This document shows positions 57,201 to 57,275 of a stretch of DNA of 64,000 bases, piece after piece. The DNA comes from Escherichia coli (lineage in GTDB: Bacteria; Pseudomonadota; Gammaproteobacteria; Enterobacterales; Enterobacteriaceae). The number at the start of each line of letters is the position of its first letter. Position 1 is the stretch's first letter. The notes beneath the pieces were generated by a model. It was not told the DNA's origin, did no database searches, and saw only the letters and a program-made list of their open reading frames with translations. The stretch lies in assembly GCF_030013205.1 (NCBI RefSeq), contig NZ_CP122648.1; one strand, 5' to 3'. Position numbers and translations under genes: made by a program.

Positions 57201-57275
57201 TGGAGCGGGTAGCGGGAATCGAACCCGCATCATCAGCTTGGAAGGCTGAGGTAATAGCCATTATACGATACCCGC
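57201..57275 (-). tRNA. tRNA-Gly (anticodon UCC), prophage-encoded
   Basis: Reverse complement GCGGGTATCGTATAATGGCTATTACCTCAGCCTTCCAAGCTGATGATGCGGGTTCGATTCCCGCTACCCGCTCCA folds as a cloverleaf: 7-bp acceptor stem, anticodon stem TCAGC/GCTGA, loop CTTCCAA (anticodon TCC), GTTCGATTC T-arm, 3' CCA. Confidence 0.9.

Follow-up and report, generated by a model that had tools for sequence, protein, structure and literature searches.

A glyT-type tRNA-Gly(UCC) gene ahead of the lysis cassette of a defective prophage in Escherichia coli ETEC4079

The stretch of DNA analyzed here, 64,000 nucleotides in length and called the window below, matches record NZ_CP122643.1 of the porcine isolate E. coli ETEC4079 except for a 1-nt indel. 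The first part of the window, from position 1 to ~41100, is ordinary chromosome running from mdtN to dusA. RNA elements found in this part fit the gene annotation: the sraL sRNA lies beside soxR (24721-24861, 153 bits), and an ordinary selenocysteine insertion element was recognized in fdhF (4371-4425, 87 bits). A prophage is integrated at dusA from ~41200 and continues past the end of the window to a dusA fragment at ~73700. The integrase gene of the prophage adjoins dusA, while its opposite end is marked by the dusA fragment. The prophage is a defective lambdoid, phiP27-like element. It has lost its head genes and most of its tail genes, and virions cannot be made. A truncated large-terminase gene (53288-54079) abuts a truncated tape-measure gene (52465-53223), and the genes normally located between these two are absent (RefSeq pseudogene flags).

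The minus strand of the prophage encodes, in this order, a Q antiterminator, an AraC-family regulator, a tRNA-Gly, two holins and an M15 endolysin (Table 1). This order places the tRNA gene after Q and before the lysis cassette, in late-strand orientation. Two plus-strand genes of low GC content (32-35%) are found between Q and the AraC gene (58716-60104). They encode a DUF6731 protein of 313 amino acids and a 147-amino-acid ORF without a Pfam match (122 amino acids in the RefSeq version). The DUF6731 gene is intact in the window, whereas a 1-nt indel is present in the strain's RefSeq record, which annotates a shorter version. Beyond the endolysin follow a plus-strand phosphatase-like cargo gene, a DUF1441 gene and then the truncated terminase gene. 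The phosphatase-like gene (55058-55633, plus strand, 38% GC), located between the endolysin and the terminase region, is annotated by RefSeq as LPS core heptose(II)-phosphate phosphatase, shows a weak match to Pfam His_Phos_1 and is rich in AUA and ACA codons.

Table 1 Features of the tRNA-Gly locus in the window
Feature	Position	Strand	Basis
Q antiterminator gene, sets late-transcript direction	60128..60493	-	Pfam Phage_antitermQ 4.6e-52
AraC-family regulator gene (cargo), upstream of the tRNA	57693..58544	-	Pfam HTH_AraC 6.7e-16, HTH_18; RefSeq
Methyltransferase gene 3'-end remnant, upstream edge of the tRNA cassette	57490..57560	-	Homology to L009 and SerU-LTIIb
Sigma-70-like promoter candidate (TTGATA, 16 nt spacer, TAGTAT)	57390..57417	-	Consensus scan
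tRNA-Gly(UCC) gene, 75 nt, CCA encoded	57201..57275	-	ARAGORN, Rfam, RefSeq
Conserved structured RNA trailer, ~180 nt, unannotated	56997..57174	-	RNAalifold, 12 diverse versions
Three intrinsic-terminator-like hairpins	56768..56938	-	Terminator scan
phiP27-type lysis cassette	55705..56742	-	Pfam; 91% DNA identity to phiP27 lysis genes
Phage_holin_8 holin and 3TM holin	56350-56742 and 56085-56360	-	Pfam
M15 endolysin	55705-56082	-	Pfam

The tRNA-Gly gene, with anticodon tcc at position 34, is the only tRNA that ARAGORN calls in the 64-kb window. On the minus strand it reads GCGGGTATCGTATAATGGCTATTACCTCAGCCTTCCAAGCTGATGATGCGGGTTCGATTCCCGCTACCCGCTCCA. Because the sequence ends in U73-CCA, the CCA end is encoded. 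The Rfam tRNA model RF00005 matches the gene from end to end with 65.6 bits (E = 5e-12, gathering score 29), compared to 64.9 bits for the host glyT, and the predicted folds of the two are equivalent. The gene has a canonical cloverleaf, with a 7-bp acceptor stem, a D stem, a 5-bp anticodon stem and a 5-bp T stem, and its minimum-free-energy fold retains the acceptor, anticodon and T arms. The identity set of E. coli GlyRS consists of U73, G1:C72, C2:G71, C35 and C36 (PMC9976931), and read against this list the set is complete in the prophage tRNA. A first-pass annotation, made from the sequence, had described a complete tRNA-Gly(UCC) with encoded CCA between an AraC-like gene and the lysis cassette in late-transcript orientation. 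ARAGORN and Rfam both call this gene, as a tRNA scoring on par with glyT and not as a pseudogene, and RefSeq gene order together with Pfam confirmed its position, with all genes concerned on the minus strand. A pseudogene or a chance match was ruled out on the Rfam score, which equals that of host glyT, and on the intact identity elements. RefSeq already carries the gene as tRNA-Gly QDW55_RS23360.

In the same genome, glyT is located in the thrU-tyrU-glyT-thrT-tufB cluster (NZ_CP122643.1; locus L008, 27769-27843). The prophage gene differs from this glyT, as well as from glyT of K-12, by exactly two bases: C is replaced by T at linear position 6, and G by A at linear position 66. These two positions form the canonical pair 6:67 of the acceptor stem, so that C6:G67 has become U6:A67 with pairing preserved, in agreement with the paired C-G to U-A change that the first-pass annotation had proposed. 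The remaining 73 of the 75 bases are the same, including the anticodon, the D and T arms, the discriminator and CCA, and the whole anticodon arm is identical to that of the host. The flanks, however, are unrelated, and chromosomal glyT (tRNA-Gly2) belongs to a four-tRNA operon ahead of tufB whereas the prophage copy stands alone. In the chromosomal regions examined tRNA-Gly(UCC) is encoded once, at glyT, which is the only UCC tRNA gene known in the host. Judged from its sequence, the prophage gene is an intact, host-derived extra copy of a glyT-type tRNA-Gly(UCC) gene.

A scan of GTDB species representatives for glyT-like genes placed the acceptor-stem change in a wider perspective (120 matches listed). 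The GCGGGUA...UACCCGC acceptor stem is native on the chromosome in 34 of the 120 matches listed, with Pseudomonas, Stutzerimonas, Halieaceae, Idiomarinaceae and some Bacillales as holders of U6:A67. C6:G67 is native in 34 of the listed matches as well, from Enterobacterales, Vibrio and Pseudoalteromonas. Since U6:A67 is the native chromosomal state in other genera, the change is ordinary and well tolerated. It preserves pairing and, by all appearances, is tolerated variation rather than a signature of special function. The exact 75-nt prophage variant was not found among the 120 species-representative matches listed. The prophage tRNA-Gly may or may not be of foreign origin, as the GTDB figures concern the matches listed and the U6:A67 stem is native in many genera.

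The tRNA gene is embedded in a small cassette with features of its own. A sigma-70-like promoter candidate was found ~115 nt upstream of the tRNA; it is a consensus match only, in a region where the consensus scan gave fewer promoter-like sites than expected by chance. The leader upstream of the tRNA shares 86% identity with the 3' end of a methyltransferase gene and the spacer preceding tRNA-Gly in another prophage, L009 (NZ_AP024126.1), in which both promoter hexamers are retained (TTGATG / TAGTAT). The tRNA-Gly that stands behind this leader in L009 (4285-4355) is 71 nt long, is altered at loop positions 32 and 38 and has an indel in the 3' acceptor strand, and may be a decaying copy. A leftover upstream tRNA from a former Thr-Gly array was looked for in the window and none was found at E <= 10; the leader matches the methyltransferase-to-tRNA-Gly spacer. 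Between the tRNA cassette and the start codon of the first holin lie terminator-like hairpins at 56938-56919, 56897-56880 and 56783-56768. The terminator scan of this 2.2 kb region returned 7 sites, compared to 2.4 expected. In the related prophage L005 the AraC gene is followed directly by the holin gene, and a counterpart of window 56898-57644 is absent, indicating that the tRNA-Gly is carried on an indel of ~750 bp.

Downstream of the tRNA a conserved structured RNA was found, which we refer to as the trailer. Its first domain is multi-branched, with a closing stem GGCACUG/CAGUGCU (57174-57086) followed by a U-run, and its second domain is a hairpin of ~33 bp (57080-56997). In the alignment of 12 versions, 96.2% of the positions in 50 pairs are paired and 11 pairs have changed on both sides, a degree of pairing that was matched by 0 of 500 shuffles. 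Many G:C or A:U pairs have switched to G.U, which fits only the minus strand. Searches of the trailer against Rfam gave no match at gathering thresholds; weak partial overlaps at E <= 10 were well below gathering scores. Among 5426 E. coli genomes, 422 (~8%) contain the trailer, yet only 2 phage records do. It was found behind Thr-Gly arrays and ahead of two different lysis cassettes. The trailer may be a terminator or processing module belonging to the tRNA cassette; processing by RNase III or a role as an sRNA could also be envisaged.

In E. coli, 268 of the 5424 matching records contain the exact 75-nt variant, the remaining genomes having the glyT form or other variants only. ETEC4079 itself harbours the AraC-tRNA-lysis module a second time, in an equally defective prophage at prfC/yjjG (locus L131, NZ_CP122643.1 4340742-4361342), which encodes the same proteins in the same order as the window segment. 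On the record, the tRNA gene of the dusA prophage is at 4720073-4720147 and that of the prfC/yjjG prophage at 4350943-4351017. The prfC/yjjG prophage of strain W13-16 (locus L001) shares ~7.8 kb with the window at 99.97% identity. This shared segment (window 54778-62585) comprises a truncated rusA gene (RusA'), KilA-N, DUF968, Q, cargo, AraC, tRNA-Gly, lysis, phosphatase and DUF1441 genes. That two different defective prophages are nearly identical over 7.8 kb suggests that co-resident prophages have recently exchanged DNA or undergone gene conversion. The W13-16 prophage also has a reverse-transcriptase gene beside dinI, preceded by a SLATT-domain gene (L001 7078-8977), and the reverse-transcriptase gene is found in ETEC4079 too (L131 1-1265). 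Together, the SLATT and reverse-transcriptase genes look like a defence-type cargo pair.

In W13-16 the exact tRNA-Gly is found again, within an Ile-Thr-Gly array that precedes a lysis cassette of the phiP27 type. The tRNA-Thr(UGU) beside it is 100% identical to host thrU, showing that the tRNAs of such prophage arrays are near-copies of host genes, with flanks unrelated to the host operon. A scan of IMG/VR with a 24-nt exact anticodon-arm core as query listed 120 viral contigs as matches; as this core is the anticodon arm, the invariance of the anticodon stem among these matches carries no information. A phage-type context of the glyT-like gene was seen in all 120 contigs listed and the host Thr-Tyr-Gly-Thr context in none. 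Eighteen of the 120 carry tRNA-Gly only, while relatives with arrays carry 2-5 tRNAs. Among the viral contigs listed Gly(UCC) is usually the last array member, its partners being a CAU tRNA (tRNA-Ile according to PGAP), Lys(UUU), Arg(UCU) and Thr(UGU). The pairing seen most often in these prophage arrays is Thr-Gly. Written out, the array reads Ile2/Met-CAU, Lys-UUU, Arg-UCU, Thr-UGU and then Gly-UCC. In the window neither a second tRNA nor a tRNA remnant lies beside the gene, which therefore is not part of a multi-tRNA array. Array membership is common in this family of late-region prophage tRNAs, yet it is no strict requirement. The window gene appears to represent the smallest version, with Gly alone, of a prophage array that is widespread and variable and would read rare A-ending codons.

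Within the same 120 viral contigs listed, 36 copies are identical to E. coli glyT and 27 to the window variant. Other variants among them are U5:A68 (16 copies), a U6.G67 intermediate (5 copies) and C5:G68 combined with U49:A65 (4 copies). The two-sided change in the window gene had been taken earlier as a sign of function, and this holds at the level of the family: across 29 distinct phage variants from the matches listed, 93.9% of the cloverleaf positions are paired and 8 pairs have changed on both sides, whereas 0 of 500 shuffles reached the observed pairing or covariation. The pairs G1:C72 and C2:G71 are invariant across the 29 variants. A cloverleaf that is kept through many double changes shows that the family is under selection as a working tRNA.

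Several known systems resemble the locus. One of them is SerU-LTIIb (KU052038), a prophage encoding LT-IIb enterotoxin. Of its two tRNA-Gly genes, one matches the window gene over 75 nt at 100% identity; it likewise follows a methylase gene and precedes a holin gene, and ~280 nt spanning tRNA and trailer are 76-84% identical to the window. However, the tRNA-Gly of SerU-LTIIb has a tRNA-Arg or tRNA-Thr as its partner, and the genes for the LT-IIb toxin come after the lysis genes, whereas in the window the tRNA-Gly is solitary and the neighbouring cargo is an AraC-family regulator. The analogy with Stx phages, drawn earlier, is borne out by the Stx2e phage phiP27, with its order methylase, ileZ, argO, stx2e and holins. 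The window tRNA is therefore in the classical tRNA/cargo slot. In phiP27 the ileZ-argO genes occupy this slot on the late strand, ahead of cargo and lysis genes; phiP27 shares the type of lysis cassette as well (91% identity), and ileZ and argO also read rare codons that are enriched in phage genes. The phiP27 tRNAs differ in being Ile and Arg instead of Gly, and stx2e, located there between the tRNAs and the holins, is absent from the window prophage. The Stx2 phage 933W carries ileZ-argN-argO in the corresponding slot. A phage-borne supplement for GGA/GGG decoding with the same anticodon is found in the tRNA-Gly(UCC) of phage T4. This tRNA is only 86.7% identical, however, so that it belongs to an old phage lineage instead of being a near-copy of host glyT, and it is part of an eight-tRNA cluster in a virulent phage.

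The codon usage of 42 intact prophage genes was compared with that of 33 neighbouring host genes, since a bias towards GGA and GGG had been put forward as a check on the role of the tRNA. The bias was present. GGA is used 12.8 times per 1000 codons in the prophage genes versus 6.0 in the host genes (odds ratio 2.15, p = 8e-7), and GGA and GGG together account for 40% of the glycine codons in the prophage versus 23% in the host. The adjacent holin gene has 38.5 GGA per 1000 codons, and in the low-GC phosphatase cargo gene 6 of the 8 glycine codons are GGA. The GGA excess fits a possible codon supplementation by the prophage tRNA-Gly. However, AGA, AUA and ACA are as enriched as GGA or more (2.7- to 3.5-fold) and the prophage lacks tRNAs matching them, so that the GGA excess may simply follow from a lower GC content in acquired DNA.

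Taken at its most straightforward, the gene is probably a functional extra copy of glyT that adds capacity for decoding GGA and GGG. Transcription would start from the promoter-like site ~115 nt upstream and/or result from read-through, either from the AraC gene or in the course of Q-dependent late transcription. RNase P and 3' exonucleases would then trim the precursor, CCA addition being unneeded, and GlyRS would charge the mature tRNA, which would decode GGA and GGG. In this way the supply would be raised of a tRNA for codons that are used about twice as often by the prophage and cargo genes as by host genes. As the terminator-like hairpins are clustered downstream of the tRNA-Gly, the lysogen could produce this tRNA while the holins stay off. 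Support of late genes, which the first-pass annotation had also mentioned, is largely moot in this prophage because it is defective; with the head genes and most of the tail genes lost, little late-gene translation is left to support.

It is also conceivable, if rather unlikely, that the gene is a neutral passenger, a structurally intact tRNA that contributes nothing measurable, is linked to the lysis cassette and has been spread by recombination between prophages resident in the same cell. The prophage harbouring it is defective, and the identical ~7.8 kb segment is present both in the second defective prophage of ETEC4079 and in W13-16; finding an identical module in a second defective prophage would likewise be expected of a passenger gene. 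The exact sequence is common to hundreds of genomes, so that its intactness could reflect recent spread and not selection in ETEC4079. In most of the viral contigs listed, homology stops within 3 nt of the 5' end of the tRNA, and at its 3' end, and in related prophages the AraC gene leads directly to the holin, without a tRNA. A passenger is, however, at odds with the compensatory evolution and the invariant GlyRS identity pairs across the family, with the retention of the cassette ahead of different lysis cassettes, and with a codon usage that matches the anticodon.

A role in counter-defence or toxin evasion was considered as well. Here the acceptor variant would replace or supplement host tRNA-Gly(UCC) inactivated by AtaT, AtaT2 or the toxSAS FaRel2, which we regard as improbable. 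AtaT of enterohaemorrhagic E. coli acetylates Gly-tRNAGly and needs G/C-rich pairs at 4:69, 5:68 and 6:67; tRNAGln with a U-A pair in the stretch read by AtaT is a poorer substrate (PMC7595197). FaRel2 selects tRNAGly and tRNAThr via acceptor pairs 1, 2, 4 and 5 (PMC11559606), and Thr-Gly is the pairing seen most often in the arrays. The phage variants among the matches listed alter mostly pairs 4-7, and in many of them 5:68 has become U:A or C:G. It has been found that phage tRNA-Thr(UGU) rescues cells from P2-OLD (PMC12445682). The acceptor-variant series, with U6:A67 in the window and U5:A68, C5:G68 and U6.G67 elsewhere, might on these grounds be taken not for neutral drift but for diversification to escape toxins that read pairs 4-6 of tRNA-Gly, a view to which we give very little credence. 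The window variant alters pair 6:67 alone, which is outside the FaRel2 determinants, and TacT reads U73 and G71 (PMC9976931), both unchanged in the window variant. Moreover, U6:A67 is ordinary on the chromosomes of Pseudomonas, Halieaceae and other genera, 36 of the 120 phage copies listed are identical to host glyT, and the sister tRNA-Thr equals thrU, the host species that is degraded by P2-OLD (PMC12445682). The papers cited above (PMC12445682, PMC11559606, PMC7595197, PMC9976931) name no system that is blocked by U6:A67.

Known counter-defence tRNAs (T5 tRNA-Lys against PARIS, T5 tRNA-Tyr against PtuAB and Thr(UGU) against P2-OLD) resemble the window gene in being phage isoacceptors with the host anticodon, and Thr(UGU) genes lie directly upstream of Gly(UCC) in the sister arrays. 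These tRNAs, however, differ from the host species in the region attacked by the nuclease, while the window tRNA-Gly keeps the host anticodon arm. No defence system is known that attacks tRNA-Gly(UCC) in such a way that U6:A67 would block it, nor is any toxin known to be blocked by U6:A67. With an anticodon arm identical to that of the host, no resistance to nucleases cutting in this arm is to be expected; an anticodon-nuclease-resistant variant was ruled out, the anticodon stem and loop being the same as in host glyT. On reading its sequence, the anticodon stem of the tRNA-Gly has a paired CAG/CUG motif and A37. P2-OLD was rejected as a threat to tRNA-Gly, since tRNA-Gly is not among the cleaved species in PMC12445682 and the phage stem is the same as that of the host. 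If evasion were nevertheless true, the tRNA and its trailer would form a self-contained, lysogen-expressed cassette guarding glycine decoding, be it of the host or of the prophage, under toxin activation or superinfection.

A remnant or target of site-specific integration, with a whole or partial tRNA gene marking where an element ends, can practically be dismissed. Integration often takes place at tRNA genes, and mosaic junctions adjoin this one, but the gene is full-length with its glyT differences one in each half, it lies ~16 kb inside a prophage whose ends are marked by dusA and a dusA fragment, and an ARAGORN scan of the window gave no partial tRNA duplicate nearby. An att-site remnant is thereby refuted by the anatomy of the prophage.

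The reading as a functional extra glyT copy concerns a gene that, while real, is an ordinary one: RefSeq annotates it already, and related prophages commonly carry it. Prophage tRNAs of this kind have been known since Stx-phage genomes were sequenced. A search of the literature returned nothing specific on prophage tRNA-Gly, on tRNAs of LT-II prophages or on ileZ/argN/argO. The broader pattern is that, in many enterobacterial prophages, a variable array of rare-codon tRNAs usually has a glyT-like gene as its last member; such arrays are nature's equivalent of the laboratory helper plasmids that supply rare tRNAs. The conserved, unannotated trailer RNA may merit a study of its own. In ETEC4079 at least two prophage copies exist beside glyT, and these could raise the GGA/GGG decoding capacity for horizontally acquired genes.
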